The notes under the pieces: generated by a model
Seen by the model: the letters and a program-made list of their open reading frames with translations, nothing else
Databases searched by the model: none
What the model was told of the DNA's origin: nothing
From: an uncultured Actinomycetes bacterium
Lineage (GTDB): Bacteria; Actinomycetota; Thermoleophilia; UBA2241
Length of the DNA: 64,000 nt
Assembly (NCBI GenBank): GCA_963767005.1
Contig: CAVYCN010000006.1
Coordinates: forward strand, 1-64,000
Direction of reading: 5' to 3'
Shown: positions 25,509-59,221 of the stretch, piece by piece
Layout of the letters: every line of letters begins with the position of its first letter
Numbering within the stretch: position 1 is the first letter of the stretch
Translations under genes and position numbers: made by a program

Positions 25509-26846
25509 TCAGTGACCGTACGTGCGGCCGGCCTCGATGAAGGCCTTGTAGGCGGCCGGATCGCCCTCGTCGAGCACAACGCCGCTGCTCAGAATGAAGC
25601 CGCCGTCGCCGGCCGCCGTGGCCAGCAGGTCCTTGACGTAGGCGTCCATCTTCTCGGGCGTGCCCATGGTGAAGAGCGCCGCCGGCACGTTGCCGCCGAT
25701 GCACTGGCGGGCCCCGACGATGGCCTTGGCCCGCGCCATGTCGGTGGCGTCGAACATCCAGACCATGCTGTGGGCCGGGATCTCGTCGTCGGCGATCACC
25801 TCGAGGCGCGTGTTGTACGAGCCCTCGACGAAGACCCAGGGCACGAGGCCTTCGGCGATCAGGCCGAGCAGCACGCCCTTGAAGCTCGGCCAGTAGAGCT
25901 CCCTGAAGTCGGCGTCGGACATGAAGCCGTCGGCGCCCTTGTGGATCGGGATGAACACGATCGGATTGCCGGTCATGTTGTTGGAGCGCACGGCCCAGTC
26001 GACGGCCTGCGGCACGAGCCGGTCCATGGCCGCCTTGACCTTCTCGGGCCGGCGGAACTTGTCGAGCATCAGGCCGCGCGTGCCGCGCATCGTGTCGCCC
26101 AGGATGTCGTAGGGCGCCTTGGTGGCGCCGCCCGCGGTCTGCGGGATGCCGAGCGTGGCCATGATCTTGCCGTCGACCGCCATGAACGCCTGCAGCCACT
26201 CCATGGCGGCGTCGCCGGCGTCCATCAGCTTCTGCAGCATCGCCTTGACCGGCGGCGCCGAGAAGCCCGCGAAGAACGGCGCCGAGAAGGGGATCTCGAC
26301 GAGATCGGTCCAGGGCGGCAGCATGGCGAACGGCTCGAGCGCGCCGAACGTGCGCGGCAGGTAGACGCGCTGCCAGTAGTTGCTCGGGTCCTGGATGAGG
26401 AGGTCGTACTCGTCGTCCTTCATCCATTCCTTCTCGTTGTACTGGTAGCTCGTGTCTTCGGGCGTGCCGTGGCCGGGCCAGTCGTACAGCCGGTAGTCGA
26501 GGACGTCGAAGAGCTTGCCCGGCACGATGCCGAGGGTCAGGCCGATGGCGTCGGGCCGCGTGTCGACGTGGAAGCGGTACCAGTCTTCTTTGAACACGTC
26601 GTAGTCGTAGTAGGCGTCGTGGCCGGTGTGGCCGTAGAAGCGGAACGGCAGCAGGCCGATCCAGGGCGCGATCGGCACGGTGGCCGGCTCTTTCAGCTCG
26701 AGCACGTCGCGATAGAGCTGCACGCGGTCGCGGTAGGCCTGCGCCGTCTCGGGCGAGGCGAACTCGATGGGCACGTTCTGCCAGGCGTCGAGACGAAAGG
26801 CGAGGCGCTGCTCCCGCGAGAGCTCGTTCCAGTTGTCAGGCAGCAT
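25509..26846 (-). CDS. Uroporphyrinogen decarboxylase/MtaA-CmuA superfamily protein (putative corrinoid methyltransferase)
   Basis: APYDILGDTMRG, GFMSDADFRELYWP, CIGGNVP, GGFILSSG; coupled to the corrinoid protein. Confidence 0.85.
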   Translation of the reverse strand: MLPDNWNELSREQRLAFRLDAWQNVPIEFASPETAQAYRDRVQLYRDVLELKEPATVPIAPWIGLLPFRFYGHTGHDAYYDYDVFKEDWYRFHVDTRPDAIGLTLGIVPGKLFDVLDYRLYDWPGHGTPEDTSYQYNEKEWMKDDEYDLLIQDPSNYWQRVYLPRTFGALEPFAMLPPWTDLVEIPFSAPFFAGFSAPPVKAMLQKLMDAGDAAMEWLQAFMAVDGKIMATLGIPQTAGGATKAPYDILGDTMRGTRGLMLDKFRRPEKVKAAMDRLVPQAVDWAVRSNNMTGNPIVFIPIHKGADGFMSDADFRELYWPSFKGVLLGLIAEGLVPWVFVEGSYNTRLEVIADDEIPAHSMVWMFDATDMARAKAIVGARQCIGGNVPAALFTMGTPEKMDAYVKDLLATAAGDGGFILSSGVVLDEGDPAAYKAFIEAGRTYGH

Positions 26847-27480
26847 CGCGCGCACCTCCCACCCAGGTCCTGACCAGCTCGACCGCGCCGACCGCGTCCT
26901 TGGCCCAGCCGTCGGCGCCGGTGAACGCCTGCACCTCGTCGGTGACGGGCGCGCCGCCGACCATGATCTTGACGTCCTTGCGCAGGCCGGCCTGCTCGAG
27001 CGCGACGACCGACGCCTTCATCGAATCGAAGGCCACCGTGAGCAAGCCGGATAGACCGACGACCTGCGGCTGGACCTCGCGCACCTTGGCGACCAGCGTC
27101 TCGACCGGCACGTCGACGCCGAGGTCGACCACCTCGAAGCCGCCGATGTCGAGCATGGTGGCGACGATGTCCTTGCCGATGTCGTGGATGTCGCCCTTGA
27201 CCGTGCAGAGCACGACCGTGCCGACCTTCTTCGAGCTGGTCGAGCCGGCCAGGTGCGGCTTCAGCCGGACGGTGATGCCCTGCATGATCTCGCCGGCCAT
27301 GATCAGCTCGGGGATGAACGCCTCGCCACACGAGAAGCGCCGGCCGATCTCGTCCATCGCCTCCTTGCAGGTCTCGACGATGGCGAGCGGGTCGGTACCG
27401 CCGTCGAGCAGCCGCTCGGTGATCGCCAGCGCGTCCTGTTCACGCAGGCCGATCACCGCTTCCTTCAGTTCGTCCGTCAT
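26836..27480 (-). CDS. Corrinoid (cobalamin-binding) methyl-acceptor protein, MttC/MtbC-like
   Basis: Cap domain plus GDIHDIGK (DxHxxG), DLGVDVP, GLSGLLT, VGGAP. Confidence 0.95.
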   Translation of the reverse strand: MTDELKEAVIGLREQDALAITERLLDGGTDPLAIVETCKEAMDEIGRRFSCGEAFIPELIMAGEIMQGITVRLKPHLAGSTSSKKVGTVVLCTVKGDIHDIGKDIVATMLDIGGFEVVDLGVDVPVETLVAKVREVQPQVVGLSGLLTVAFDSMKASVVALEQAGLRKDVKIMVGGAPVTDEVQAFTGADGWAKDAVGAVELVRTWVGGARDAA

Positions 27481-27555
27481 CGCTCCTCCTTGCCGGGTCC
27501 TCAGGCGATGCAGCCACCGCAGGCGGTGCGACCGCCGTCGCGCCGTCACAGGTGC

Positions 27556-27592
27556 AATGTCAATATATATAGATATATACTCTGCCATGCAA
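27556..27592. promoter_or_regulatory. AT-rich near-palindromic operator/promoter between the divergent corrinoid and GntR genes
   Basis: TGTCAATATATATAGATATATAC in a ~70% GC background. On the minus strand, TTGCAT-N17-TATATA overlaps it. Confidence 0.65.
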
Positions 27593-27628
27593 GACCTGCT
27601 CGCTGCGATTGGTAGGATGCGAAGGACC

Positions 27629-28384
27629 GTGGCTGCGTCGGAGACATTGGCCGGGCTGAAGCCCATCGACCGCTCGTCGTTCGAGCCCGCCTACATCCAG
27701 CTCGTCAACATCCTCAGCCACGCCATCGCCCGCGGCGACTACCGCGCCGGCGACCAGCTCCCCACCGAGGCCGAGCTCTGCGCCGCCTTCGACGTCAGCC
27801 CGATGACCGTGCGCCGCGCCGTCGGCGTGCTGCTCGATCGCGGCTTCGTGAGCACCACCCGCGGCCGCGGCACGTTCGTCAAGCCGCTGCACATCTCGGC
27901 CGCGAGCTTCGAGCTGAGCGAGTTCCACGACCTGCTCGCCGACCCCGCCGTCACCGCGCGCGTGCTCGAGGCGCGCGTCATGCCGGCCGGCGCGCGCGCC
28001 GCCGCCAACCTGGGTGTGTCCGAGGGCACGCGCGTGATCAGCATCCGCCGCCTGCTGCAACGCGGCGACGAGCCGCTCTTCTACCATCGCGAGTCGCTCG
28101 CCTACGATCCCGAGCGACCGACGGTCGAGGCCGAGCTCGGCGTGACGGCGCTGCGCGACCTCTTCGAGGGCGGCGGCGCGGCCGGGCCCAAGCGCGGCGA
28201 GCTCGTCGTGCACGCGTCGGTCCTCACCGGCGAGGAGGCCCGCTATGTCGGGCGCCCCGCCGGCAGCGCCGCGCTCGTCGTCGAGCACCTGTTCTTCGAC
28301 TACGACGACAAGCCGATGAGCTGGGGCCGGTTCGTCTGCCGCGGCGACCTGCTGCAGCTCCGCGCCGTGATCGGTGCCCGGTGA
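27629..28384 (+). CDS. GntR (HutC/UTRA) transcriptional regulator; start uncertain
   Basis: QLPTEAELCAAFDVSPMTVRRA, RGRGTFV, C-terminal UTRA-like domain. Confidence 0.92.
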   Translation: MAASETLAGLKPIDRSSFEPAYIQLVNILSHAIARGDYRAGDQLPTEAELCAAFDVSPMTVRRAVGVLLDRGFVSTTRGRGTFVKPLHISAASFELSEFHDLLADPAVTARVLEARVMPAGARAAANLGVSEGTRVISIRRLLQRGDEPLFYHRESLAYDPERPTVEAELGVTALRDLFEGGGAAGPKRGELVVHASVLTGEEARYVGRPAGSAALVVEHLFFDYDDKPMSWGRFVCRGDLLQLRAVIGAR

Positions 28385-29076
28385 AGCCCGGCGACCGACT
28401 CGATCCGTCGTCGCTGCCGGGGCTGATCGCCGCCCTCGACGAGCGGGCGTCGCTTGCCGAGGTACGCCGCCGCGTCGCGGCCGGTGAGACGCCGCTCGCC
28501 GTCATCGCCGACTGCCGCGTGGGCATGGACTACGTCGGCCGTCACTACGAGAGCGGCAAGTACTTCATCGGCGGGCTCATCATGGCCGGCGAGATCTTCC
28601 GCGAGGCGATGGAGATCCTCGAGCCGCTGATGCCGGGCGACGAGCCGGCGGCCGGCGCGGCGCCGGCGGGCGCGCCCGCCGGCGCCGCGCCGGCCGCCGG
28701 CGTCCTGGTGTGCACGGTGCGCGGCGACATCCACGACATCGGCAAGAGCATCCTCGTCATGCTGCTGCGCGCCCAGGGTCACGTCGTGCACGACCTCGGA
28801 GTCGACGTGCCGCCCGACGAGGTCGTGCGCCGCGCCTTGGAGCTGCGCCCCGACGTCGTCGGGCTGTCCGGTCTCCTCACGGGGGCGCACCCGAGCATGC
28901 GTGAGACGGTGGCCGAGCTGCGGCGCGTGGCGCCGCAGCTCGGCCACCGTCTCGTCGTCGCGGTCGGCGGCTCGTCGGTGAACGAGCAGGTCTGCGCCTG
29001 GACGGGCGCCGACCTGTGGGCCGACGAGGCGGTGCGCGGCGTCGAGCTCATCGCCGGCGCGCTCGCGCGGCGCTGA
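28381..29076 (+). CDS. Second corrinoid protein
   Basis: GDIHDIGK, DLGVDVP, GLSGLLT, VGG; GTGA overlap with gntR. Confidence 0.92.
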   Translation: MKPGDRLDPSSLPGLIAALDERASLAEVRRRVAAGETPLAVIADCRVGMDYVGRHYESGKYFIGGLIMAGEIFREAMEILEPLMPGDEPAAGAAPAGAPAGAAPAAGVLVCTVRGDIHDIGKSILVMLLRAQGHVVHDLGVDVPPDEVVRRALELRPDVVGLSGLLTGAHPSMRETVAELRRVAPQLGHRLVVAVGGSSVNEQVCAWTGADLWADEAVRGVELIAGALARR

Positions 29077-38384: not shown

Positions 38385-39779
38385 CTAGCCGGCGAACGAC
38401 TCGTCGATCGAGCGGGCGGCGCGGCGGCCCGCGCCCATCGCGCTGATCACGGTGGCCGCCCCGGTCACGACGTCGCCGCCGGCCCATACCCCGGGCCGCG
38501 ACGTGGCGCCGGTCTCTTCGCTTGCCACGATGTTGCCCTTGCGCCCCACCTCGAGGCCCGGCGTGGTCATGGGGATCAGCGGGTTGGGGCTGTTGCCGAT
38601 CGCGCAGACCGACGCGTCCATCTCCATGATGAACTCCGAGCCGGGCACCTCGACCGGCCGGCGCCGGCCCGACTCGTCGGGCTCGCCGAGCTCCATGCGA
38701 CGGCACTCGATGCTCGCCAGGCGCCCGGCCTCGTCGCCGATGAGCTGCACGGGCAGCGTGAGAAAGTCGAAGATCACGCCCTCTTCCTCGGCGTTCTCGG
38801 CCTCTTCGGCGCGCGCCGGCAGCTCGGCGCGCGAGCGCCGGTAGACGATGTGCACCTCGTCGGCGCCCAGGCGCAGCGCGGTGCGCGCCGAGTCCATCGC
38901 CACGTTGCCCCCGCCGAACACGGCGACCCGCGCCGGCCGCTTGAGCGGTGTGTCGTAGGCCGGAAAGCGAAAGCCGCGCATGAGGTTGCAGCGCGTGAGG
39001 TACTCGTTGGCCGAAAAGACGCCGTTCAGGTTCTCGCCGGGGATGTCGAGGAACCACGGCAGCCCGGCGCCGGCGCCCACGAAGACGGCGTCGAAGGTCT
39101 CGAGCAGGCGTTCGATCGTGCGCGTCTTGCCGACCACGAAGTCGAGCCGCAGCTCGACCCCGAGGCCGCGCACGTAGTCGACCTCGCGGCGCACGATCGC
39201 CTTGGGCAGGCGGAACTCGGGGATGCCGTAGGTGAGCACGCCGCCGGCCTCGTGCAGCGCCTCGTACATCGTCACCGCGTGACCGCGCAAGGCGAGGTCG
39301 GCGGCCACCGTGATGCCGGCCGGCCCCGAGCCCACGATCGCGACGTGGCGGCCGGTCGGCGGCGGGAGCGGCGCAGCCGCTCCCGCCGCCTCGCCGGCCG
39401 CCGCCTCCCAGTCGGCCACGAAGCGCTCGAGGCGGCCGATCGCCACCGGGTCGCCCTTCTTGCCGAGGATGCAGCGCGCTTCGCACTGCTCCTCCTGCGG
39501 GCAGACGCGCCCGCAGACCGCCGGCAGCGCGTTGGTCTGCTTGACGGCGCGCACGGCGGCGGCGAAGTCGCCCTCGGCCACGAGGCCCACGAAGCGCGGG
39601 ATGTCGACGCTCACCGGACAGCCGTCGACGCAGCCCGGCTTCTTGCACGACAGGCAGCGCGCCGCCTCTTCGCGGGCAAGCTGCTCGGTGTAGCCCAGGG
39701 CGACCTCGTCGAAGTTGCGCACGCGCTCGGCCGGCGCCTGCTTGGGCATGGGCCGCCGCACCAGGTCGACCTTGGCCAC
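38385..39779 (-). CDS. nfnB: NfnB/SudA (GltD-like) transhydrogenase large subunit
   Basis: RCLSC...CVDGCP, CGRVCPQEEQCE, GSGPAG, YGIPEFRL, GGGNVAMD, GGDVVTGAATVISAM. Confidence 0.9.
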   Translation of the reverse strand: MAKVDLVRRPMPKQAPAERVRNFDEVALGYTEQLAREEAARCLSCKKPGCVDGCPVSVDIPRFVGLVAEGDFAAAVRAVKQTNALPAVCGRVCPQEEQCEARCILGKKGDPVAIGRLERFVADWEAAAGEAAGAAAPLPPPTGRHVAIVGSGPAGITVAADLALRGHAVTMYEALHEAGGVLTYGIPEFRLPKAIVRREVDYVRGLGVELRLDFVVGKTRTIERLLETFDAVFVGAGAGLPWFLDIPGENLNGVFSANEYLTRCNLMRGFRFPAYDTPLKRPARVAVFGGGNVAMDSARTALRLGADEVHIVYRRSRAELPARAEEAENAEEEGVIFDFLTLPVQLIGDEAGRLASIECRRMELGEPDESGRRRPVEVPGSEFIMEMDASVCAIGNSPNPLIPMTTPGLEVGRKGNIVASEETGATSRPGVWAGGDVVTGAATVISAMGAGRRAARSIDESFAG

Positions 39780-39819
39780 TACGCCCTCCCCCGCCCGCTG
39801 CCGGCCGCCGCGCCCATCG

Positions 39820-40653
39820 TCAGAACCTCGCCGAGCAGCCGCTGCGGTGCAGCGGTTCGACCTCTTCCTGGTGGTAGCCCTCGCGCCGGGCGAGGAACTC
39901 GTCCCAGTCGACCTCGTGGCCGTCGAACTCGGGCCCGTCGACGCAGGCGAACTTCGTCTCGCCGCCGACGCTCAGGCGACACACGCCGCACATGCCGGTG
40001 CCGTCGATCATGATCGGGTTCATGCTGACGATCGTCTTGATGCCGAGCGGCCTGGTCGCGTTGGCGACCGTCATCATCTGAAAGGTGCAGCCGTGGGCGA
40101 TCACCCGGTCGGGGACGATCTTCTCGTGGGTGAGGATCTCGGCGAGACGGGTGACGTGGCCGCGATAGCCTTTGCTGCCGTCGCGGGTCACGACGATGAG
40201 GCGCTCGACGACCGCCGCCATGCGGTCCTCCCAGTACAGCACGTACGAGCTGCGCGCCTCGATCAGGGCGAAGACCCGGTTGCCGGCCTCGCGCATGGCG
40301 CGGGCGATGGGCAGCAGGCTGCCCAGGCCGTAACAGCCGCCGACCAGCAGCACCGTGCCGAACTTGTCGATCTCGGTCTCGTTGCCGAGCGGCCCGGCGT
40401 ACGAGGCGACCGTGTCGCCGGCCTTCAGCCGGGCGAGCTTGGCGGTCGAGGCGCCGACCTGCACGAACACCGAGGTGACGGTGCCGGCCTGCGCGTCCCA
40501 GTCGGCGATCGTGAGCGGGATGCGCTCGCCGCGCTCGTCGGGCCGCAGGATCACGAAGTTGCCCGCCCGCGCGCTCTCGGCGACGTCGGGCGCCTCGACG
40601 GTCAGCAGGTGCACGTTGGGCACCAGCATGCGGCGTTCAACGACCGGGACCAT
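39820..40653 (-). CDS. nfnA: NfnA/SudB transhydrogenase small subunit
   Basis: GERIPLTIAD, GPLG, MIDGTGMCGVCR, CVDGPEFD. Confidence 0.9.
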   Translation of the reverse strand: MVPVVERRMLVPNVHLLTVEAPDVAESARAGNFVILRPDERGERIPLTIADWDAQAGTVTSVFVQVGASTAKLARLKAGDTVASYAGPLGNETEIDKFGTVLLVGGCYGLGSLLPIARAMREAGNRVFALIEARSSYVLYWEDRMAAVVERLIVVTRDGSKGYRGHVTRLAEILTHEKIVPDRVIAHGCTFQMMTVANATRPLGIKTIVSMNPIMIDGTGMCGVCRLSVGGETKFACVDGPEFDGHEVDWDEFLARREGYHQEEVEPLHRSGCSARF

Positions 40654-43177
40654 CTCCACCTCCTCTGGACCGGCGCCCCTTGCGGACGCGGTCACCGGCC
40701 AGCACGGCGCCGCGCGCCGGCCGCCACGAGCCCTGCCAGCTTTCGTCGCGCACGAGGTAGGCCGCGCCGCGCGGGCAGTCGGGGTCGGACCGGGCGGCGA
40801 GGACCAGGTCGGTGCCGTCCAGGCGGACCGTCAGCTCGCCGCCCGGCTCGACCCCGAGCCGGGCGAGATCGTCGGGATGCAGCCCGACGCCCGCTTCGAG
40901 GTGCAGCTCGGCCAAGCCCTCGACCACGCCGGCGAGATCGATGCCGCGGTGGCGGAACGACGCGTGCTCGAGCACGATCGTGAAGCGGCCGCTGTGGACC
41001 GGCACGATGGGTGCGGCCGGGCCGGCCGGCCCGGCCGCACCCATCGCACTCACCGCGACCGGGCTCAGGCGCCGCGGAGCCCGGTCGAGCTCGGCCGGGA
41101 ATCCAGGCACCTCGGCGCGGATCGCGTCGCGCACGGCGCGGGCCGACTCGAAGCCGAGCCCTTTGCGGCCGAGGCGCGCCGCCAGGTCGCTCACGATGCG
41201 CCAGTCGGGCCGCGGCCCGAGCAGGGCGTCGCGCGGCGGCCGGTCGACCGGGCGCAGGTCCTGCACGCGCCCCTCGACGCTCGTCAGCGTGCCCTCGGCC
41301 TCGACCGCGGCGCACGCCGGCAGAAAGACGTCGACGGCGAAGGGCGGCGGGTACATGCTCTGGACGATCACGGTCTCGCAGGGCGGCCGCTCGGTGAGCG
41401 GCGTCTCGCCGATCAGGTAGAGGACGTGCGGCGGCCGGCCGGTCCACAGGCGCTCGAGCCCGTCCTCGGCGGGGCCCGGCCGCGGGCCGGGCAGCACGCC
41501 GGCGAGGACGCCGAGCTCGAGCGCGCCGCGCACGTTGGCCCCCTGGGCGAGCGGCAGCACCGAGGCGCCGGGCAGCGCGGCCACCGCCTCGAGCTCGGCC
41601 ACGAGCTCGCCGGCGCCCTCGCAGTCGAAGACGCGCGGCCCGACGACCACCGACACGGCGCCGGCGGCCTCGCCGTCACCGGCGGCCTCGCCGGCGCTCG
41701 TGGGCGTTGATGCAGCGGCAGCCTCTCCACGGGCAGCGGCACCGTCGCCCGCACGCAGCTCGCGCAGCAGGGCGGCCAGGTCGTGCGCCTCGTCGCCCGG
41801 ACGCGAGCGCAGCCAGCGGTCGGCCACCCGCGCCAGGTTCGACTCGCGCGCATCGACGACCAGCAGGCGCGCGCCGCGCCGCACGGCGCGGCGCACCTGC
41901 ACCCCGGCGACCGAGAACGAGAAGCGCGTGTCGAGGCCGGCGACGACAACGGTGTCGGCCGCGGCCAGACGGGCGAGCGACACCGGCAGCGCGAAGAGGC
42001 GCGACCAGAGGGCGGCGCCGCCGGGCAGCGCCGAGCGGGCCGTGGAGTCGACGGCGGCCGCGAGCGCCTTGCGGGCGAAGCGCTGCGCCGCGTAGAGCGA
42101 CTCGTTGGGCAGGTCGGGCGAGGCGAGCACGAGCACCTCGCCGGGTGGCGCGGTCGCGAGGGCCGCGCCGACGGCGTCGAGCGCCTCGTCCCAGTCGGTC
42201 ACGCGCTCGTAAGGCCCCTTGCGCACGACCGGCCGGCGCCCGCGGTCGTAATGATGGGTGACCTCGGGCAGGCAGAAGCGGCCGCGCAGGCAGAGCTGGC
42301 CGTCGTTGACCTCGAGGTCGGGCGCGGCCCGCACGGCGGAGAGGGCGCCGTCCTTGTGAGCGAGCTCGACCCGGCAGCCCAGGCAGCAGAACGGGCAGGT
42401 GCTCGTCTCGGCGCCGTCGGCCTTGCCGTCCCACTTGGAGACCTTGTCGAAGAGCGCGCCGGTGGGGCACACCGACACGCAGGCGCCGCAGAACTCGCAG
42501 CCGGCGGCCACGTGCGAGACGCCGAACGCCGGACCCACCAGGGTGCGCGGCCCACGGTACTTGAAGGCGAGCACCGACGCGCCGCGCACCTCATGGCACA
42601 TGCGCACGCAGCGCCCGCAAAGGATGCAGAGGTTGTAGTCGCGGTCGTAGAAGGGGTCGTCGTGCTCGGGCTCGAGACCCTTGTAGACGATCGGATAGCC
42701 GACGTCGGTGACCCCGAGCCGCTCGACGAGCGCCTGCAGCTCGCAGTCGCCGTCGTTGGGGCAGCTCCGGCAGCCAGTCGACACGCCCGACTTGCGGATG
42801 GTCGTCAGGCTGCGGCGGCAGTCGTCGCTCTCGCCGCACAGCAGGCAGCTACAGGGGTGCTCCGACAGGAGCAGGCGCAGGATCTCCTCGCGCATCTCGC
42901 GTAGCGCGACCGTGTCGGTCGTGACCGCCATGCCTTCGGTCGCGAGCGTGCTGCAGGCGAGCGGGTAGCCGCGCGCGCCCTCGATCTCGACCGAGCACAG
43001 CCGGCAGCCGCCGAAGGCGCTGAGCTCCTCGTGCCAGCAGAGCGAGGGCACGAACACGCCGGCGAGCTCGGCGGCGCGCAGCACCGTGCTGCCCTCGGGC
43101 ACCGTGACCGGACGGTGGTCGATCTCGAGGTGCACGGCCGGCGCGTCGGGGCGCGGCAGGCGTTCGACCGTGCTCAT
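40637..43177 (-). CDS. NuoG/FdhA-like Fe-S subunit lacking the molybdopterin Cys/Sec ligand
   Basis: ATG at 43177 overlaps the upstream stop. 2Fe-2S, His-ligated and 2x[4Fe-4S] motifs, CPFCCLGC...C. The FDH site DxCARx[CU]H reads DSTARSAL. Confidence 0.85.
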   Translation of the reverse strand: MSTVERLPRPDAPAVHLEIDHRPVTVPEGSTVLRAAELAGVFVPSLCWHEELSAFGGCRLCSVEIEGARGYPLACSTLATEGMAVTTDTVALREMREEILRLLLSEHPCSCLLCGESDDCRRSLTTIRKSGVSTGCRSCPNDGDCELQALVERLGVTDVGYPIVYKGLEPEHDDPFYDRDYNLCILCGRCVRMCHEVRGASVLAFKYRGPRTLVGPAFGVSHVAAGCEFCGACVSVCPTGALFDKVSKWDGKADGAETSTCPFCCLGCRVELAHKDGALSAVRAAPDLEVNDGQLCLRGRFCLPEVTHHYDRGRRPVVRKGPYERVTDWDEALDAVGAALATAPPGEVLVLASPDLPNESLYAAQRFARKALAAAVDSTARSALPGGAALWSRLFALPVSLARLAAADTVVVAGLDTRFSFSVAGVQVRRAVRRGARLLVVDARESNLARVADRWLRSRPGDEAHDLAALLRELRAGDGAAARGEAAAASTPTSAGEAAGDGEAAGAVSVVVGPRVFDCEGAGELVAELEAVAALPGASVLPLAQGANVRGALELGVLAGVLPGPRPGPAEDGLERLWTGRPPHVLYLIGETPLTERPPCETVIVQSMYPPPFAVDVFLPACAAVEAEGTLTSVEGRVQDLRPVDRPPRDALLGPRPDWRIVSDLAARLGRKGLGFESARAVRDAIRAEVPGFPAELDRAPRRLSPVAVSAMGAAGPAGPAAPIVPVHSGRFTIVLEHASFRHRGIDLAGVVEGLAELHLEAGVGLHPDDLARLGVEPGGELTVRLDGTDLVLAARSDPDCPRGAAYLVRDESWQGSWRPARGAVLAGDRVRKGRRSRGGGDGPGR

Positions 43178-45156
43178 GAGGTCGCCCCCGCCGACTCGAT
43201 CACGATGGCGTCGCCGGCGATCGCGTCGAAGCGGCAGATCTCGTAGCACGAGCGGCACTTGATGCACTTGTCGAGGTCGAGGTTGTGGGGCTCGGAGCGC
43301 GGTCCCGTGATGGCGCCCGTCGGACACACCTGCACGCAGCGCTGGCAGCCCGTGCAGCGGCCGGGGATGATCGAGTAGACGACCAGGTCGCGGCACACGG
43401 CGGCACGGCAGCGATGCGCCGTGATGTGCTCGACGAACTCGTCGCGGAAGTACTTGAGCGACGAGAGCACGGGGTTCGGCGCCGTCTGCCCGAGGCCACA
43501 GAGCGAGGCCGCCTTGACCACGCGGGCGAGGCGCTCGAGCCGGTCGAGGTCGGCGAGCTCGCCGCGCCCGGCGCAGATGCCGTCGAGGATGCCGACCAGG
43601 TGGCCGGTGCCCACCCGGCAGGGCACGCACTTGCCGCACGACTCGTCCTGGGTAAAGCCCAGGAAGTAGCGCGCCGTGTCGACGATGCAGGTGTCGCGGT
43701 CGAGCACGATCAGGCCGCCCGAGCCGATGATCGAGCCGGCCGCCGCGAGGTTCTCGTAGTCGATCGGCGTGTCGAGGAACTCCTCGCCCAGGCAGCCGCC
43801 CGACGGCCCGCCGGTCTGCACCGCCTTGAAGTCCTTCGCGAGACCGCCGCCGATGTCGTAGATCACCGCGCGCAGGGTGGTGCCGAAGGGGATCTCGACC
43901 AGTCCCGTGCGCCGCACTTTGCCGACCAGGGCGAAGGTCTTGGTGCCGCGCGAGCCCTCGGTGCCGTGGGCGGCATACCAGGCCGCGCCGCGGCCGATGA
44001 TGGCCGGCAGCGTGGCCAGCGTCTCGACGTTGTCGATGATCGTGGGCCGCCCCCACAGGCCGGACACGGCCGGGAACGGCGGCCGGCTGCGCGGCATGCC
44101 GCGCCGGCCCTCGATGCTCGCGATGAGCGCCGTCTCCTCGCCGCAGACGAAGGCGCCGGCGCCTTCCTTGAGGGTGATGTCGAACGAGAAGCCCGAACCG
44201 AGGATGTCGGCACCCAGGAGCCCCAACTTGCGGGCCGCGGCCATGGCCGAGCGCAGGCGGGCGATGGCGAGCGGGTACTCGGCGCGGATGTAGATGTAAC
44301 CGTGATCGGCGCCGATCGCGTAGGCGGCGATCAGCATGCCCTCGAGGACGGCGTGCGGGTCGCCTTCGATCAGCGAGCGGTTCATGAAGGCGCCGGGGTC
44401 GCCTTCGTCGGCGTTGCAGACGAGGCGGCGCGGCCCCTCGTTCTCGCGGCAGGTCAGCCACTTGCGCCAGGTCGGAAAACCGGCGCCGCCGCGGCCCCGC
44501 AGGCCGGCGTCCTTGATGGTGTCGACGACCTCGCGCCAGCTCAGCTCGAGGCAGCGCTCGAAGGCGCGGTAGCCGCCGCGCGCCAGGTAGTGGTCGACCT
44601 GCTCGGGGTCGATCACGCCGCAGTTGCGCAGCACGATACGCACCTGGTCGCGCAGCATCGGGTGGTCGGCCAGGCGCGCCACGGCGGCGACGGCGTCGGC
44701 CGGCGTCGCGCCGTCGTTTGCGGGCGCGCCATCGCCGGCGGGGGCGCCGTCGTCGCCGCCGGCCGGCGCAAAGCCGCCGTCGAGACCCAGATCGGCGCCG
44801 GGTGCGTCGAAGCGCCCGACGAGGTGCGTGCGCGGCACCTCGCCGGCCAGCAGGCCGTCGAGCACGCGCGGCACGAGCTCTGGCGCCATGTTCGAGTAGC
44901 ACACGCGCGGCCGGCCGGGGAGCTGCACGTCGAACAGCGGCTCGAGATAGCAGGGCCCGATGCAGCCGACCCCCACGACCGCGGCGTCGACGCCGCGCTC
45001 GGCCAGGTACTGGAGCACCGCGTCGTGCACGGCGCCGGCGCCGGCAGCCTTGCCGCACGAACCCATGCCGATGTAGACGACGGGGCGCGGGCTGGCCGCC
45101 AGTGCGGCCCAACGCGCCTCGGCCCGCTTGCGGCGGCGCTCAAGCGTGGCCGTCAC
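43174..45156 (-). CDS. HydB/NuoF-like NADH/FMN-binding subunit (bifurcating type)
   Basis: N-terminal thioredoxin-like Fe-S domain, GLRGRGGAGFPT, CNADEGDPGAFM, CGEETAL, SCGKCVPCR, C-terminal 2x[4Fe-4S]. Confidence 0.93.
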   Translation of the reverse strand: MTATLERRRKRAEARWAALAASPRPVVYIGMGSCGKAAGAGAVHDAVLQYLAERGVDAAVVGVGCIGPCYLEPLFDVQLPGRPRVCYSNMAPELVPRVLDGLLAGEVPRTHLVGRFDAPGADLGLDGGFAPAGGDDGAPAGDGAPANDGATPADAVAAVARLADHPMLRDQVRIVLRNCGVIDPEQVDHYLARGGYRAFERCLELSWREVVDTIKDAGLRGRGGAGFPTWRKWLTCRENEGPRRLVCNADEGDPGAFMNRSLIEGDPHAVLEGMLIAAYAIGADHGYIYIRAEYPLAIARLRSAMAAARKLGLLGADILGSGFSFDITLKEGAGAFVCGEETALIASIEGRRGMPRSRPPFPAVSGLWGRPTIIDNVETLATLPAIIGRGAAWYAAHGTEGSRGTKTFALVGKVRRTGLVEIPFGTTLRAVIYDIGGGLAKDFKAVQTGGPSGGCLGEEFLDTPIDYENLAAAGSIIGSGGLIVLDRDTCIVDTARYFLGFTQDESCGKCVPCRVGTGHLVGILDGICAGRGELADLDRLERLARVVKAASLCGLGQTAPNPVLSSLKYFRDEFVEHITAHRCRAAVCRDLVVYSIIPGRCTGCQRCVQVCPTGAITGPRSEPHNLDLDKCIKCRSCYEICRFDAIAGDAIVIESAGATS

Positions 45157-45610
45157 CGAGCAGCTCCTGCAGCTTGAGGACGCTCATCTGACCGTAGATC
45201 GAGTCGTCGATCGTCACCACCGGCGCGAGAGCGCAGCAGCCCAGGCAGGCGACCCGCTCGAGACCGTACTCGCCGTCGGGCGTGGTCTCGCCGGGCCGCA
45301 CGTCGAGGCGGCGCTCGAGCGTCTCGAGCATCTGCACGCCGCCCTTCACGTGGCAGGCGGTGCCCAGGCAGACGCGCAGGCGATGACGGCCCGGCGGCGT
45401 GAAGCGGAACTGGGCGTAGAAGGTGGCGACGCCGAAGACTTCGTTCTCGGACAGCTTGAGCCAGCGCGCGACACCCGCGATCGACTCGGGCGACAGGTAA
45501 CCGAGGACCTCTTGCGTGCGCTGCAGCACCGGCACGAGGTCGGAGGGCGCACCGGAGAAGCCGCGCCTGATAGCGGGCCAGGGGTCGGAGGTCGGGGCGG
45601 GCGTCGCCAC
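45140..45610 (-). CDS. HydC/NuoE-like [2Fe-2S] subunit
   Basis: GVATFYAQF, CLGTAC, CLGCCALAP. Confidence 0.93.
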   Translation of the reverse strand: MATPAPTSDPWPAIRRGFSGAPSDLVPVLQRTQEVLGYLSPESIAGVARWLKLSENEVFGVATFYAQFRFTPPGRHRLRVCLGTACHVKGGVQMLETLERRLDVRPGETTPDGEYGLERVACLGCCALAPVVTIDDSIYGQMSVLKLQELLGDGHA

Positions 45611-52865: not shown

Positions 52866-54341
52866 TCAGGGTCGCACGGCGGCCAGCTCGCCTTCGGCCT
52901 CGACGATGATCCGCCCGAGCTCGGCCGCGACCGGCGCCGGCAGCGGTGTCGGCACGTGCGTCTCGAGCAGCCGGACCGCCTCGCGCCGCGCGCGTTCGTA
53001 GACCGTCGTCGCACCGTCGGCGGCCCACTCCTCGCGGACCCGGCGATCGATCAACTGCGAGCGCGACTGGCCGCGCATGCCGCGGTAGGTGTCGTCGTGC
53101 GACAGAAAGTCGCGGAACGGCCCGACCTCGGCGATCACATCGACCGAGAGCGTCTCGTCTGAGACCGGGATCCCGGGCACGCAGAACTTGACCATGCGCG
53201 CGAACTCGGCGTCCATGACGAGCTGTGCGTAGTCGATCGTGACGCCCGATTCCAACATCCCCAGCCCGTAGATCAGGTTGGCCCCTGCCAACGCCGGCAG
53301 CAGGCTGGTGAGGGTCTTCTCGTGACCGGATTGGGCGTCGGCCACCTTGGCGTCGCCCTACGCACCGGCGACCCAGCTCGGCAGCAGGTAGAAGCGCGCC
53401 AGGCAGGCCACCCCGGCGCCGATCATGCCGCACTCGGGGCTGCCCACCGAGGCGCTCGCGAAGCGCAGGTCCATGGCCGTCGTCGAGGAGCCGTAGATGA
53501 CGGGTGCGCCGCGCGTCGTGAGCTGCGCGAGCGTGATGCCGGCCAGCACCTCGGCGTTGTGGGTGACGAGCGTGCCGGCCAGGCTGACCGGCGACGAGCC
53601 GCCGGCCATGGCCATCGACAGCACGTTGACCGGCACGCCGGCGCGCGCCCCCTCGATGATGATGTGACAGGCGTCGGCGACCAGCTTGAGCGGGCTCACC
53701 GGGCAGGTCAGGAACGAAAGCAGCGGGCGCCGGCGTAGCGCTTCGCGGCCGCCGGCGATGGCCGCCGCCATGTCGATCATCGCGCGGGCGCAGAAGCCCG
53801 TGAGCGGACCGATCGTCGCGTGCTTCGTGGTGTTCGCGAAGATCGCCTCGGCGTTGTGCAGCGGCGCGGTGTCGGGCGGCACGTCGTGGGCGCCCAGGGG
53901 CCGCTCGACGACGTCGATCTCGGGCAGCGCGTCGATGATCCTCGTGCAGTCGGCGACGTCGCACTTACGCGACTCGTGCAGCTCGCCGGTCCGCGGGTCG
54001 ACGACCTGGATGCCCTCGCCGAAGTTGGTGAAGCCGACGCGGCCGTCCTCGAGCACGACGTCGCGGGCCGGGTCGCGTCCGCAGAGCACGACCGAGGAAG
54101 GCGCCGAGCGGACCGCGTCTTCGACCAGGTGCGCCGGCAGGCGCACCACGCTCGAGTCGCGGTCGACCTCGGCGCCGGCCGCCGCGAAGATGTCGCGGGC
54201 TTCGCCGTCTTCGACGAACACGCCGGTGCGCGCCAGCACCTCGAGTGTCGCCGAGTGGATCTCGTGCAGCTCGTCGTCGGTGAAGACCTCGAGCCGAAAG
54301 CCGCCGCTCGCTCGCGCGCCGGCCCGCGGGTTGCGCCTCAT
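52866..54341 (-). CDS. mttB: Pyrrolysine-containing trimethylamine:corrinoid methyltransferase (491 aa, Pyl at codon 328)
   Basis: ORFs 53358-54341 and 52866-53345 are one frame joined across TAG 53358-53360: LPSWVAGA-TAG-GDAKVADAQSGHEKT. Also GFTNFGEG, CPVSPL, SMAMAGGSSP, GSSTTAMDL, GSPE, IYGLGMLE. Confidence 0.93.
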
Positions 54342-54396
54342 GGCCGCCTCACCCCTCCCCGGTCACTGGTCGTGCCGCGTCCGATCCGCGCGCGCT

Positions 54397-55803
54397 CTAG
54401 CGCACGCGGCTCGTCGGGGCCGTGCGCTCGCGGAACCGCTCGACGCAGTTGATCGGCAGGTCGAGCACCCGGGCGATGTTCACCTTGGCCTCGATCATGT
54501 TCGCCTGCGCCGGCTGGCTGATCGCGTAGCTGTGGATGCGGCCGAAGCCGTGCTCGTTGCGCACGTCGGTCATGACGACCGGGTCGGACAGGTCGAACGA
54601 CGTCACGCCGAGCCTGTCGGCCACGTACTGCTTGGCCTGCGCGAGACGCATGCCGCGGGTCATCTGCGCGCGAGCGACCAGATCTCCGGCCGCCCGCATG
54701 CCGCCCATGCCCGCCGCCTGCGCATGCGCGTTGTGCATGCCGTGCGGATCGCCCGAGCCCACCTACAAGCCGTCGAGGCGCAGCAGGTCGACGAACGACT
54801 TGGCGGCCCTGCAGACGGCGTCGCCCGGCGGATGCACGAACATCGGCACTGCGCCGACGCCCATGCCGGCGTTCATGTGCACGGGGATCGTGGCGACCGC
54901 CATGCAGGGCTTGACGATGGCGATCGCGCGCGCCACGTTCCAGGCGCAGCTCTTACCGGTGTTCACGTTGACGACCGGGCCGAACATGGTGGCGCCGGCC
55001 TGCTGGGCCAGCAGGAGCTGGTCTTTGGGCCACAGGCCGGCCAGGCGCACGCCCTCGTAGGTGAGCTCGCCGTGCATGCCGAGCACGAACTCGCCCGCCA
55101 TGCCGAGCTGCACGCCGAGGTCGGGGTACTTCTGACGGATGATCGCGGTGGCGCGCAGCGCGGCCAGGAACTCGGGGTCGCCCGAGGCGCCGGTCGTGTC
55201 CCAGTCGATCGCGTCGGCGCCGGCCTCGTACTGCGAATCGGCGAGGTGCACCATGTCGAGGACAGCCATCTCGACCGCCTCTTCTTCGGCCGCCCGCGCC
55301 TCGGCGATCTTGCCCAGCGGCAGCAGCTCGTTCCAGTTGTCGCAGGGGCCGTCCGGTTTGGAGTACAGCCCGAGGTTGGGCATCACGCCGTACTGCAGGG
55401 GCGCCACCGTGGCGAGCAGCGCGTCGTGCATGCACTGCGCCTCGTAGGCGAGGATCGTGCGCACGACCTTGAGCGAGTAGTCGCCGACGCACAGCTCGAG
55501 CAGGTCGGCGCCCATCCACTGCTCGTAGGCCTGCAGATCCTGCAGGCGCGTGGCGTGGGTCTTCATGCCGGTGCCGTCGCAGGAGAGCACGACCTCGTCG
55601 CCCACGTCGACGCCGGTGAAGCGCGCCGGCGAGGCGTAGATGTCGAGCAGGTGGTCGATCTCGTCGGCCGCCAGCGGCGCCACCTTGGCGCGTTTGGCCG
55701 CCGCCTCGGACCCCGCCTCGAGGTCGGCCCTGATCTCGTCGCGGGTCATCCGCACGAACATGCCGTCGGCCATACGCGTCGGCACCCTGGGCTCGCCGCT
55801 CAC
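54397..55803 (-). CDS. mtbB: Pyrrolysine-containing dimethylamine:corrinoid methyltransferase (468 aa, Pyl at codon 347)
   Basis: GTG at 55803 with GGAGG RBS. ORFs 54763-55848 and 54397-54762 are contiguous across TAG 54763-54765: RLDGL-TAG-VGSGDP. Also TRMADG, MPNLGLY..PDGP, DTTGASGD, GEFVLGMHG, GMGVG, RAAGDLVAR. Confidence 0.93.
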
Positions 55804-55946: not shown

Positions 55947-56480
55947 TCAAGGGACATCCGCGCCGCGCGCCGGCTCGAGGCGCACGATGGCCTCGCCCTC
56001 CCACTCGAAGTTCACCTTGTCGACCCGCAGGATGTGCCAGGTCTCGGTGTCGGCGATGCCCTCGATCTTCTCGAGCTCCTCGTTCAGAAACCGGTAGAGG
56101 CCCTCGTTGTCGGGCAGGTGGGCCTCGATCAGGATGTCGAAGGAGCCTGTCGTGTAGCCCACGTATGAGACCGCCTCCATGGCCGCCAGGGCGGCCCCCA
56201 CGCCCTTGGCAAAGCCGCGGTGCACACGGATGCCGACCATGGCATCGACGGGGTAGCCGATCGCGGCCGGGTTCACGCGGGCCATGGGCAGGATCGCCCC
56301 CTGGCTGATGAGGCGCTCCACCCGGTTGCGCGCGGTCGGCTCGGACACGCCCACGGCGCGCGCGATGCTCGCATACGAACGCCGCGAGTTGGCGCGCAGC
56401 AGGCGCACGATGTGGCGGTCGAGCTCGTCGAGCTCGACGACCCCGAACGGCGCCTCGCCCGCCCTGATCACGCCGCCCAC
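55947..56480 (-). CDS. Lrp/AsnC family regulator
   Basis: LDELDRHIVRLLRANSRRSYASIARAVGVSEPTARNRV; TTGSFD. Confidence 0.92.
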   Translation of the reverse strand: MGGVIRAGEAPFGVVELDELDRHIVRLLRANSRRSYASIARAVGVSEPTARNRVERLISQGAILPMARVNPAAIGYPVDAMVGIRVHRGFAKGVGAALAAMEAVSYVGYTTGSFDILIEAHLPDNEGLYRFLNEELEKIEGIADTETWHILRVDKVNFEWEGEAIVRLEPARGADVP

Positions 56481-56810: not shown

Positions 56811-58304
56811 GTGAAGGCGAGCACGACCTGGCTCAGCGACGCGGAGAAGAACGCCATCGCCGACCACGCCCTCGAGGTGCTCGCCACCACCGGCATGCGC
56901 TTCGCCGGCTCGCGGGTCCTGCCCCTGCTCGCCGAGCAGGGCGCCGCGGTCGACCGTGCGCGCGGCCTTGCTCGCTTGCCGCGCGAGCTCGTCGAGCGGT
57001 CGCTCGCCGCCTGCCCGCGCTCGTTCGTCATGGGCGGCGCCACGCCGGCCGACGACGTCGCGCTCGGCACCGGCGAGGCCTTTCACTTCACGCCCAGCGG
57101 CTGCGTGGCCAAGACGCTCGACCGGCAGAGCGGCCGGCGCCGCCCGAGCACGCTCCAGGACCTGCGCGACTGCACCGGCCTCATGGACGAGCTGCCCGAG
57201 ATGGACGTCATGTCGACCCAGGTCAGCGCGACCGACGTCGGCCTTGAGCGCCGCGAGCTGCTCGAGTACTTCACCATGCTCACCGAGACCACCGAGCACG
57301 TCTCGTTCATCGACTGCCCGCACGAGGTCGACGCCGTGCTGCGCCTGTGCGACGTGCTCGGCGAGGCCGCCGGCTTTGCCGAGCGGCCGCGCTTCTCCAC
57401 GGTGTGCACCATCGCCTCGCCGCTGCAGGTCGACGGCGGGGCGCTCGACGTGCACCTCGCCCTGGCGCCGCGCGGCGTGCCGGTCGAGGTCTACTCCATG
57501 ACGATCGCCGGCGCGACCTCGCCGGTCACGCTGGCCGGCACCGTCGTCCAGGCGGTGGCCGAGTTCCTCGGCGTGGCCACCGCCTTTCAGGTGGCGGCCC
57601 CCGGCGCGCGCCTCGTGTTCTGCTTCGGCTCCGGCGTGCTCGACATGGTGCGCACGACCTTCTCGCTCGGCTGCGTCGAGAGCGGCCTCATGGCAGCCAT
57701 GGCCACCGAGGTCGGCCACCACCTCGGCGTGCCCACCCTCAACCCCGCGCTGTCGACCGACGGCAAGCACCCCGGCGTGCAGGCCGGCTACGAGAAGGCG
57801 CTCAAGGCGGCCACCGTCTGCGCCGCCAACCCCGACCTCGTGTCGGGCTGGGGCCTGATCGACTCGCACAACACGATGTACCTGCCGCAGTCGGTCATCG
57901 ACAACGAGATCGCCGCCATGGTGCGGCGCCTGTGCGCGCCGGTCGACGTGAGCGAGGCCAGCCTCGCCGGCGACTCGATCGCCCGCGTCGGGCCCGGCGG
58001 CGGCTTTCTGCGCGAGAAGGACACGGCGCGGCGCATCCGCGCCGGCGAGCACTTCCTGCCGACGGTCTCGAACCGGCTCTCCTACGACCAGTGGCTCGCC
58101 GAAGGTCGTACCGAGGTCGACGCCGCCGCCGCGCGAGTCGACGAGCTGCTCGCGCGGCACCACGCGCGCGGCCCGCTGCTGCCCGCCGACCAGCTCGACG
58201 AGATCGCCGCCATCTGCCGGGCGGACCCCGGCAGCGTCCTCTGGGCGCGGCGCGAGGAGCGCCGCGACCGCCCGCGTCCCACGCCAGGAACGGAGGCACC
58301 GTGA
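56811..58304 (+). CDS. Trimethylamine methyltransferase superfamily protein, non-Pyl
   Basis: ASPLQ, AGATSPVTLAGT, VPTLNPALSTDGK..QAGYEK (no TAG), VGPGGGFL. Confidence 0.9.
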   Translation: MKASTTWLSDAEKNAIADHALEVLATTGMRFAGSRVLPLLAEQGAAVDRARGLARLPRELVERSLAACPRSFVMGGATPADDVALGTGEAFHFTPSGCVAKTLDRQSGRRRPSTLQDLRDCTGLMDELPEMDVMSTQVSATDVGLERRELLEYFTMLTETTEHVSFIDCPHEVDAVLRLCDVLGEAAGFAERPRFSTVCTIASPLQVDGGALDVHLALAPRGVPVEVYSMTIAGATSPVTLAGTVVQAVAEFLGVATAFQVAAPGARLVFCFGSGVLDMVRTTFSLGCVESGLMAAMATEVGHHLGVPTLNPALSTDGKHPGVQAGYEKALKAATVCAANPDLVSGWGLIDSHNTMYLPQSVIDNEIAAMVRRLCAPVDVSEASLAGDSIARVGPGGGFLREKDTARRIRAGEHFLPTVSNRLSYDQWLAEGRTEVDAAAARVDELLARHHARGPLLPADQLDEIAAICRADPGSVLWARREERRDRPRPTPGTEAP

Positions 58305-59221
58305 GCAGCACGATCGGCTACATCGGTCTCGGCAGTCTCGGCCGCCACCTCGCCGCCAGCCTGCTGCGGGCCGGCTTCGCGGTCACCGTCAACGACATCG
58401 ACCGCGACGCGGCCGGCCCGCTGCTCGAGGCCGGCGCGGCCTGGGCCGACTCGCCGGCAGCCGTAGCGCGCGCCGCCGGCACGGTGATCACCTGCCTGCC
58501 GTCGCCCGCCGCCGTGGCGAGCGTGGTGGCCGGCCCCGCCGGCGTCCTCGACGACCTCGCCGCCGGCGGCACCTGGATCGACATGAGCACGAACGACGCC
58601 CACGAGCTGCAGCGTCTGGCCGCCCTCGCCGCCGAGCGCGGCGTGGCCACGCTCGAGGCGCCGGTCACGGGTGGCGTGCACCGCGCCGCGGCCGGCATGA
58701 TCACCGTCCTGGTCGGCGGCGACGAGGCCGTCTATCACGCCCACCTGCCGGCCTTCGAGGCGATGGGCGGTCGCGTCTTCTACATCGGCGAGCTCGGCAA
58801 GGCATCGGTGATCAAGGTGATCACCAACATGCTGGCCTTCATCCACCTGGTGGCCGACGGCGAGGCGCTCATGCTGGCCAAGCGCGGCGGCGTCGACCTG
58901 AAGCTCGCCTGGGACGTGATCAAGGCGAGCTCGGGCAACAGCTTCGTGCACGAGACCGAGGGCCAGCTCATCCTGAGCGGCAGCTACAACATCAACTTCA
59001 CCATGGACCTCGCCCGCAAGGACCTGCACTTCGCCCTGGGCATGGGCCACGAGTTCGGCGTGCCACTCGAGCTCGCCGGCTTGACCGAGCAGATCTTCGC
59101 CCGGGCGCGGGCCACCTACGGCGGCGACGCGCAGTCGCCCATGGTCGCCAAGCTGCTCGAAGACGCGGTGGGCACCGACCTGCGCGCGCCCGGCTTTCCG
59201 GCCGAGCTGGCCCCCGAGTGA
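58301..59221 (+). CDS. 3-hydroxyisobutyrate dehydrogenase family NAD(P)-dependent oxidoreductase
   Basis: IGYIGLGSLG, WIDMST, EAPVTGG, KVITNML, ARKDL; GTGA overlap. Confidence 0.9.
   Translation: MSSTIGYIGLGSLGRHLAASLLRAGFAVTVNDIDRDAAGPLLEAGAAWADSPAAVARAAGTVITCLPSPAAVASVVAGPAGVLDDLAAGGTWIDMSTNDAHELQRLAALAAERGVATLEAPVTGGVHRAAAGMITVLVGGDEAVYHAHLPAFEAMGGRVFYIGELGKASVIKVITNMLAFIHLVADGEALMLAKRGGVDLKLAWDVIKASSGNSFVHETEGQLILSGSYNINFTMDLARKDLHFALGMGHEFGVPLELAGLTEQIFARARATYGGDAQSPMVAKLLEDAVGTDLRAPGFPAELAPE

Follow-up and report, generated by a model that had tools for sequence, protein, structure and literature searches.

The mttB gene at positions 52866 to 54341, on the minus strand of the window (the whole stretch of DNA analysed here, 64,000 nucleotides), appears to be a native and intact gene whose in-frame TAG is likely decoded as pyrrolysine (Pyl) by the organism's own pylT, pylSc, pylSn and pylBCD, and its predicted product is a trimethylamine:corrinoid methyltransferase of 491 aa, a reading to which a probability of about 0.93 is given. 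Standard annotation cuts this gene into two, and in the list of open reading frames mttB figures as two ORFs of 327 and 159 aa; taken alone, it is an ordinary representative of a family that is well studied. The lineage is what counts, Pyl being nearly universal in one Thermoleophilia family and patchy in one other. It contributes a set of split PylRS/tRNA pairs of very high GC content and, in bacteria, a case for the study of dual reading of UAG where TAG stops are common, and its members are likely bacterial methylamine consumers that could divert substrate from methanogens. The features of the gene are the following:

52866..54341, minus strand: mttB, predicted pyrrolysine-type trimethylamine:corrinoid methyltransferase, 491 aa with the TAG as Pyl328
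53358..53360, minus strand: in-frame TAG, codon 328, in the column of Pyl334 (frame translation and alignment)
54342..54360, minus strand: purine-rich, ribosome-binding-site-like stretch ahead of the mttB ATG (from the sequence)
53261..53360, minus strand: match to Rfam PYLIS_3 (RF02510), 71.7 bits, gathering score 38

Translated from 54341 to 52866, the frame runs through 327 residues, the TAG at 53360-53358, 163 further residues and a TGA, with this single internal stop in 491 codons and neither a second stop nor a frameshift. The translation thus confirms the claim of the first-pass annotation that the 327-aa and 159-aa ORFs share one frame and are split only by the TAG at 53358-53360. The amber codon stands in the context LPSWVAGA*GDAKVADAQSGHEKT. 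Against TIGR02369, the equivalog model for Pyl-type MttB, the read-through product scores 722.8 bits (cut-off 525), and the MttB of Methanosarcina barkeri (PDB 7XCM, 7XCL) aligns to its residues 3-483 with an E value of 4e-125. Its fold follows from these homologs of solved structure. In this alignment the stop coincides with the modified residue of the M. barkeri enzyme, in the motif AGS-X-SDAKVPDDQAGHEKT, and the proposed position of the TAG in the Pyl column, opposite Pyl334, is borne out. One stop in 491 codons would be found at the Pyl column about once in 490 cases by chance and, judged on the alignment, chance placement is excluded. The Rfam matches to PYLIS_3 and PYLIS_2 were considered as a decoding signal and rejected, as several base pairs of the model are not formed and the matched region is conserved coding sequence; the PYLIS_3 match probably reflects this coding sequence and not a structure.

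The M. barkeri enzyme has Gly110 and Tyr364 as catalytic residues; both are kept in the mttB product, as Gly108 and Tyr358, the latter being encoded downstream of the TAG; Met249 and Gly372 (M. barkeri numbering) are also kept. As reported in PMC9842639, Gly110 and Tyr364 are fully conserved in 66 Pyl-MttBs, and Vmax, 48 per minute, falls to 1.7 with the change Y364F. The position of Thr111 is occupied by Glu in the window mttB, a residue present there in 56 of 61 aligned sequences, Desulfobacterota ones included.

A scan of GTDB genomes yielded 56 loci related to mttB, mostly from records titled as Thermoleophilia, Actinomycetes or Actinomycetota MAGs (66-92% identity to mttB), with Desulfobacterota or deltaproteobacterial MAGs among them at 55-65% identity. 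The suggestion of a very GC-rich, probably actinobacterial host fits these closest relatives. The Pyl column holds TAG in 55 of the 55 related loci with a match of at least 50% identity spanning the site, the 56th locus (L057, 32% identity) falling below this filter and being left out of the count; the first-pass annotation had considered that close homologs might have a sense codon there, and the orthologs have none. Moreover, synonymous sites around the TAG vary among the 55 loci while the TAG stays, over many independent assemblies. A total of 59 matches of at least 50% identity span the column, comprising the 55 with TAG, one per locus, and four tandem paralogs with sense codons. Three of these paralogs (L045:7291, L047:759 and L048:5) adjoin amber mttB genes, are 58-60% identical to the window mttB and have Phe for Tyr364 together with Leu, Val or Ala at the Pyl position. 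They possibly represent a branch that lost pyrrolysine secondarily, and the Phe at Tyr364 makes them a natural control for the pairing of Pyl and Tyr, with the exception of the fourth paralog (L059), which retains Tyr364.

In a quick tree of 33 rows, made up of seven paralogs, two distant outgroups and 24 of the 54 related sequences, the window mttB is placed among Thermoleophilia orthologs with an SH-aLRT of 100. This grouping, together with a GC content of 71.7% that is like the 71.4% of the window, argues for a native gene; no donor is claimed, because the tree is without Firmicutes and archaeal rows. Two records titled Deltaproteobacteria and Alphaproteobacteria (L013 and L034) hold an mttB 77-88% identical to that of the window, and in L034 it also has the same neighbours; these contigs are likely mis-binned or mis-titled, or else reflect a recent transfer.

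Reads of the source strain over the mttB TAG were also sought in sequencing runs, and none were found, the best runs containing no more than a 0.18 share of the sampled words. All four runs compared with the locus were contigs of related organisms, mostly less than 95% alike, and one of the four is an RNA library of a related organism with pieces across mttB and mtbB. These pieces were discarded as proof of the TAG, the transcription or the habitat of the source strain, as they come from related organisms. Since no source-strain reads were found, it is conservation across relatives, and not reads, that confirms the TAG of mttB.

The neighbourhood of mttB comprises these genes:

54397..55773, minus strand: mtbB, pyrrolysine-type dimethylamine methyltransferase, 458 aa (TIGR02368, 402.9 bits, cut-off 369.1)
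55947..56480, minus strand: Lrp/AsnC-family regulator (AsnC/Lrp models, below equivalog cut-offs)
56811..58304, plus strand, divergent: non-pyrrolysine MttB-superfamily gene with Ser in the Pyl column (313 bits against the TIGR02369 cut-off of 525)
58301..59221, plus strand: gene of the beta-hydroxyacid dehydrogenase family; many relatives have it in synteny with the locus

Directly upstream of mttB, on the same strand and 56 bases away, mtbB is a second amber gene, one that the first-pass annotation left unmentioned in this finding. A TAG interrupts it at 54763-54765 and another, at 54397-54399, ends it; if this terminal TAG were read through, the product would gain 16 residues up to a TGA. 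At the internal site, all 35 matches of at least 70% identity that span it in the 56 loci have TAG, and the amber mtbB and mttB are paired in most close relatives. An arrangement in frame of mtbB-TAG-mttB on contig C18 was also considered; it is absent from the window pair and was treated as chance. In neighbourhood counts over the 56 loci, many of which are short contigs, the Lrp/AsnC regulator has a match of at least 70% identity in 19, and the divergent non-Pyl MttB gene one of at least 62% in 29. The Lrp/AsnC-family gene, placed upstream of mtbB-mttB, is likely a local regulator. No corrinoid-protein gene was found beside the window mttB, although in five relatives such a gene separates mtbB from mttB.

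The genome assembly (3.44 Mb, 19 contigs, 100% complete, 4.87% contamination), where the window is part of contig C6, contains 16 amber methyltransferase genes, namely seven mttB, eight mtbB and one mtmB. Among 38 MttB-family matches, seven have TAG in the Pyl column, 29 have a sense codon and two do not span it, and one TAG each is present in all eight MtbB genes and in one of four MtmB genes. The non-pyrrolysine superfamily, to which MtgB belongs (PDB 2QNE, related to the window mttB with an E value of 9e-62), thus has about 30 paralogs in this genome with a sense residue in the column, two of which were scanned and reach 311-313 bits, far below the TIGR02369 cut-off. Between the seven amber MttBs, identity ranges from 49 to 79%, and all of them keep Tyr364. 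Three, including that of the window, have Gly at position 110, and the other four have Ser or Asp:

C3:158518, C4:145389, C4:257073 and C11:77878: Gly110-variant amber MttBs (L144, L145, L146 and L148)

These four variants keep both the TAG and Tyr364 and form one group in the quick tree (SH-aLRT 91), and it is possible that they are Pyl enzymes for other substrates.

The alternative that survives best concerns the substrate of the window enzyme itself, which could be a real Pyl enzyme acting on some other tertiary or secondary amine instead of trimethylamine. Seven Pyl-MttB paralogs of such divergence exceed the need of one substrate, the window mttB has Glu for Thr111, and its non-Pyl MttB and hydroxyacid dehydrogenase neighbours are not classic methylamine genes. 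However, Gly110, Met249, Pyl and Tyr364 are all kept in the window mttB, its score lies about 200 bits above the equivalog cut-off, an amber mtbB accompanies it in most close relatives, and Glu111 is the common residue of the aligned sequences, all of which make a different substrate improbable and a trimethylamine methyltransferase the preferred reading.

The first-pass annotation proposed a search of the rest of the genome for pylT, pylSc/pylSn and pylBCD, and all of them were found, the proteins scoring above their cut-offs. On contig C3, the tRNA-Pyl at 242986-243058 (ARAGORN) has a cloverleaf fold with CUA in the anticodon loop, and pylB, pylC and pylD are found just upstream on the same strand. 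On the same contig, pylSc occupies 236.0-236.9 kb and pylSn about 240.1-240.4 kb, with a corrinoid-protein gene between them, inside the pyl cluster. The scores against the NCBIfam models were 297.8 bits for PylSc (cut-off 178.15), 122.2 for PylSn (51.15), 428 for PylB (348.2), 279.1 for PylC (248.3) and 194.7 for PylD (150.05). As a selA gene (C4:373081-374421) and a tRNA-Sec (C4:389248-389345) occur in addition to this pyl set, the organism likely uses 22 amino acids.

The same genes recur throughout the family of the window genome. Of 60 other genomes from the family, 56 were found to have a Pyl-type MttB, with a TAG inside every match listed (77 further MttB matches of this search are outside those listed), and PylC in 54 of the 60; PylSc was found, within the class, in 42/45 genomes of the family, 8/45 of one other and 0/160 of the remaining ten families and, in a sample of the phylum, in 1/300 other genomes, a member of the second Pyl-bearing Thermoleophilia family, all of these counts being samples in which kin are not independent. 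PylSc is also above the cut-off in four of five genomes behind close mttB loci. On the other hand, pylSc, pylC and the Pyl-type mttB are missing together in two near-complete genomes of the family (G020 and G043). Two further genomes depart from this pattern: G018 (L083), a family member 94% complete, has pylSc and pylC and, in the same MttB search, no MttB-family candidate at all, and G047 has pylSc and pylC and no Pyl-type MttB match.

It might still be argued that the TAG is read through as a standard amino acid or that the pyl system is a non-functional relic, as PMC12626013 describes two archaeal pylTS sets that did not complement, so that a complete-looking pyl set can be non-functional. 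Such a situation is very improbable here, given that all the pyl genes are intact and above cut-offs, that they are kept with an amber mttB in about 90% of the family genomes, and that G020 and G043 lack pylSc, pylC and Pyl-mttB jointly. Insertion of pyrrolysine by a working pyl system remains the favoured reading.

How TAG is read in the rest of the genome was examined with gene calls from a custom dicodon gene caller (not Prodigal), in which TAG ends 928 of 2858 called genes, or 745 of 2260 (33%) at a stricter setting. The mean coding score of the next 15 codons is -5.3 after TAG, -6.7 after TGA and -5.3 after TAA, and a further stop is found within five codons after 4% of TAGs versus 8% of TGAs, with no enrichment of back-up stops. 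RF1 is present above its cut-off. As TAG ends about 33% of the genes and RF1 is present, decoding is likely ambiguous and not reassigned; with a third of the genes ending in TAG and back-up stops not in excess, readthrough would come at a cost if it were efficient. A screen of 166 TAG junctions, limited to genes for which there was a paralog or a fetched relative, detected conserved readthrough in methyltransferases only; some of the 16 amber genes escaped it. No difference in the frequency of TAG stops was shown between Pyl-positive (44/176) and Pyl-negative relatives (51/167; Fisher p 0.28), a comparison made on small 20-kb stretches of kin that are not independent, with ten G047 genes left out and a gene caller that was trained on the window's genome and under-calls lower-GC DNA. 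Pyl-decoding bacteria have been reported to use 20-30% TAG stops (PMC4153887) and Pyl archaea 1-27%, in a paper according to which there is no known mechanism of targeted insertion (PMC12626013). The use of TAG here fits the known bacterial Pyl pattern, at its upper edge.

A reassignment of TAG to pyrrolysine over the whole genome, as in the archaeal 'code 34' (bioRxiv 10.1101/2024.09.30.615893), would account for 16 amber methyltransferase genes and for the genes that follow a TAG in frame, such as pylC-TAG-pylD. Nevertheless, this genome does not fit that code: the coding signal falls after TAG as after other stops, RF1 is present, the junction screen, over the genes that it covered, gave conserved readthrough in methyltransferases only, and the pylC-pylD junction is TGA in 27 of 30 relatives, which makes a genome-wide change of code scarcely credible beside ambiguous decoding. 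In the window's genome pylSc, pylSn and pylC end in TAG and pylD is in frame after pylC; among relatives, pylC ends in TGA in those same 27 of 30 and pylSc ends in TAG in 6 of 11. A readthrough fusion or a feedback in the pyl genes was rejected, as these TAG ends are not conserved among relatives.

Outside the methyltransferases, a peptide ABC substrate-binding protein gene (L143, C13:17276-19066) has an in-frame TAG at codon 286. It was discarded as a further Pyl protein, there being no stop in the other listed matches from 12 genomes of the genus, two orthologs of 76-77% identity included; from the sequence comparison, this TAG would be a strain-specific nonsense change or an error, which suppression by Pyl could mask. 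A nonsense mutation or an assembly error in mttB, leaving a pseudogene or two ORFs, could likewise be imagined where many genes truly end in TAG (745 of 2260 called) and an unrelated gene has a strain-specific one in frame, but it is refuted by the conservation of the TAG in the same column at 55 of 55 loci with varying flanking synonymous sites, and the lack of any other stop or frameshift, the Tyr364 equivalent in the downstream part and the full pyl set speak against it too; the early view that mttB is not a pseudogene stands.

For the intact Pyl enzyme that is preferred here, a route of methylamine use can be drawn by analogy with M. barkeri MttB. Pyl328, activated via a water held by the Tyr/Gly pair, would form an adduct with trimethylamine, and the methyl group would pass from this adduct to the Co(I) of a corrinoid protein whose gene lies in another part of the genome, where 18 corrinoid-protein matches are found, four of them above the TIGR02370 cut-off. 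The resulting dimethylamine would be demethylated by the neighbouring MtbB and monomethylamine by the amber MtmB encoded elsewhere in the genome. An activator of the RamA/RACo type may keep the corrinoid cobalt reduced, and the genome encodes a RACo activator. The methyl group may then be handed to tetrahydrofolate by an AcsE/MtqA-like enzyme; an AcsE-like protein scores 245.9 bits on a partial sequence, below the cut-off of 259. Fhs and MetF are both present, and acetyl-CoA synthase (CdhC/AcsB) gave no match to PF03598 in the 100%-complete assembly of 19 contigs, so that oxidation of the methyl group to formate or CO2 is likelier than its conversion into acetate, and acetogenesis is unlikely in this genome if the assembly is complete. 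As TAG is mainly a stop, tRNA-Pyl would compete with RF1. The pyl genes are probably turned up when methylamines are present, by analogy with Acetohalobium arabaticum, whose pyl expression is regulated by substrate (PMC4153887).

A broader and only tentative proposal is that Pyl-MttB radiated into new chemistry in one large, hardly described Thermoleophilia family of Pyl users, with conditional decoding of TAG and burning of methyl groups. In such a scenario, the change of Gly110 to Ser or Asp in four of the seven amber MttBs would mean that Pyl is used on substrates other than trimethylamine, and 16 amber enzymes in a genome where a third of the genes stop at TAG, with no detectable purge, would call for tight conditional decoding. 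In the same scenario, methyl groups may also be burnt without acetyl-CoA synthase, in competition with wetland methanogens for methylamines.

Comparison with known systems places the window mttB close to the M. barkeri enzyme (Pyl334; 7XCL, 7XCM, 7XCN; PMC9842639), with the amber codon in the same column and the motif DAK..D.Q.GHEKT following it. In contrast, it belongs to a bacterial, GC-rich host, has Glu for Thr111 and no adjacent corrinoid gene, and its genome encodes split PylSn and PylSc instead of a fused PylRS; the methyl group here would presumably go to tetrahydrofolate and not to coenzyme M. Split PylSn and PylSc and the joint presence of Sec and Pyl machinery are shared with Desulfobacterota, Acetohalobium and other Pyl bacteria, the dual use of Sec and Pyl having been described for deltaproteobacteria (PMC8318568). 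A nearby regulator, non-Pyl MttB paralogs and TAG as a frequent stop (20-30%, and 33% here) are also features of Pyl bacteria. Unlike the deltaproteobacterial Pyl genomes, for which a full Wood-Ljungdahl pathway is described, this genome of the Actinomycetota gave no acetyl-CoA synthase; a further difference from the Pyl bacteria is the presence of 16 amber methyltransferase genes in one genome.

Pyl in Actinobacteria has precedents, and the novelty that the first-pass annotation implied was overstated. PylRS was listed in two Actinobacteria by PMC9630628, as repeated in PMC11764691, and PMC10805028 reported that some Actinobacteriota MAGs from Stordalen Mire, of the same phylum and class as the window genome, express Pyl-type mttB and mtbB. 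The latter work counts Bog-752 as one of the most active genera. In its supplement, Bog-752 is assigned to Thermoleophilia, UBA2241, and several MtbB genes of one Bog-752 MAG are broken at the position of M. barkeri residue 355. A record titled bog_752 in the GTDB genome scan holds an ortholog 89% identical to the window mttB. In the sections of PMC10805028 covered here, Pyl is called from amber truncation alone, without the pyl cluster, its spread in the family, the use of stop codons or the active sites of paralogs, and those of PMC5424206 and PMC13695967 contain nothing on Pyl in this Thermoleophilia lineage. A literature search with most subscription journals outside its scope found no paper devoted to Pyl in Thermoleophilia. 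Altogether, Pyl-mttB in Actinobacteriota is already in print and the window mttB is a further example; what could be new is the scale of the Pyl trait in the family and the Gly110-variant paralogs.

Two other regions of the window can be mentioned. At positions 25509-29076, a GntR regulator and a gene weakly like MtaA/uroporphyrinogen decarboxylase accompany a pair of corrinoid-protein genes. This pair has a near-copy on contig C9, where other C6 sequence is also repeated at about 88-89%, either through duplication or through strain contamination. Finally, positions 38385-45610, on the minus strand, contain a cluster in which NfnAB-like genes come after NuoE/NuoF/NuoG-like ones of the type known from formate dehydrogenases or hydrogenases; it is a candidate electron-bifurcating sink for methyl oxidation.
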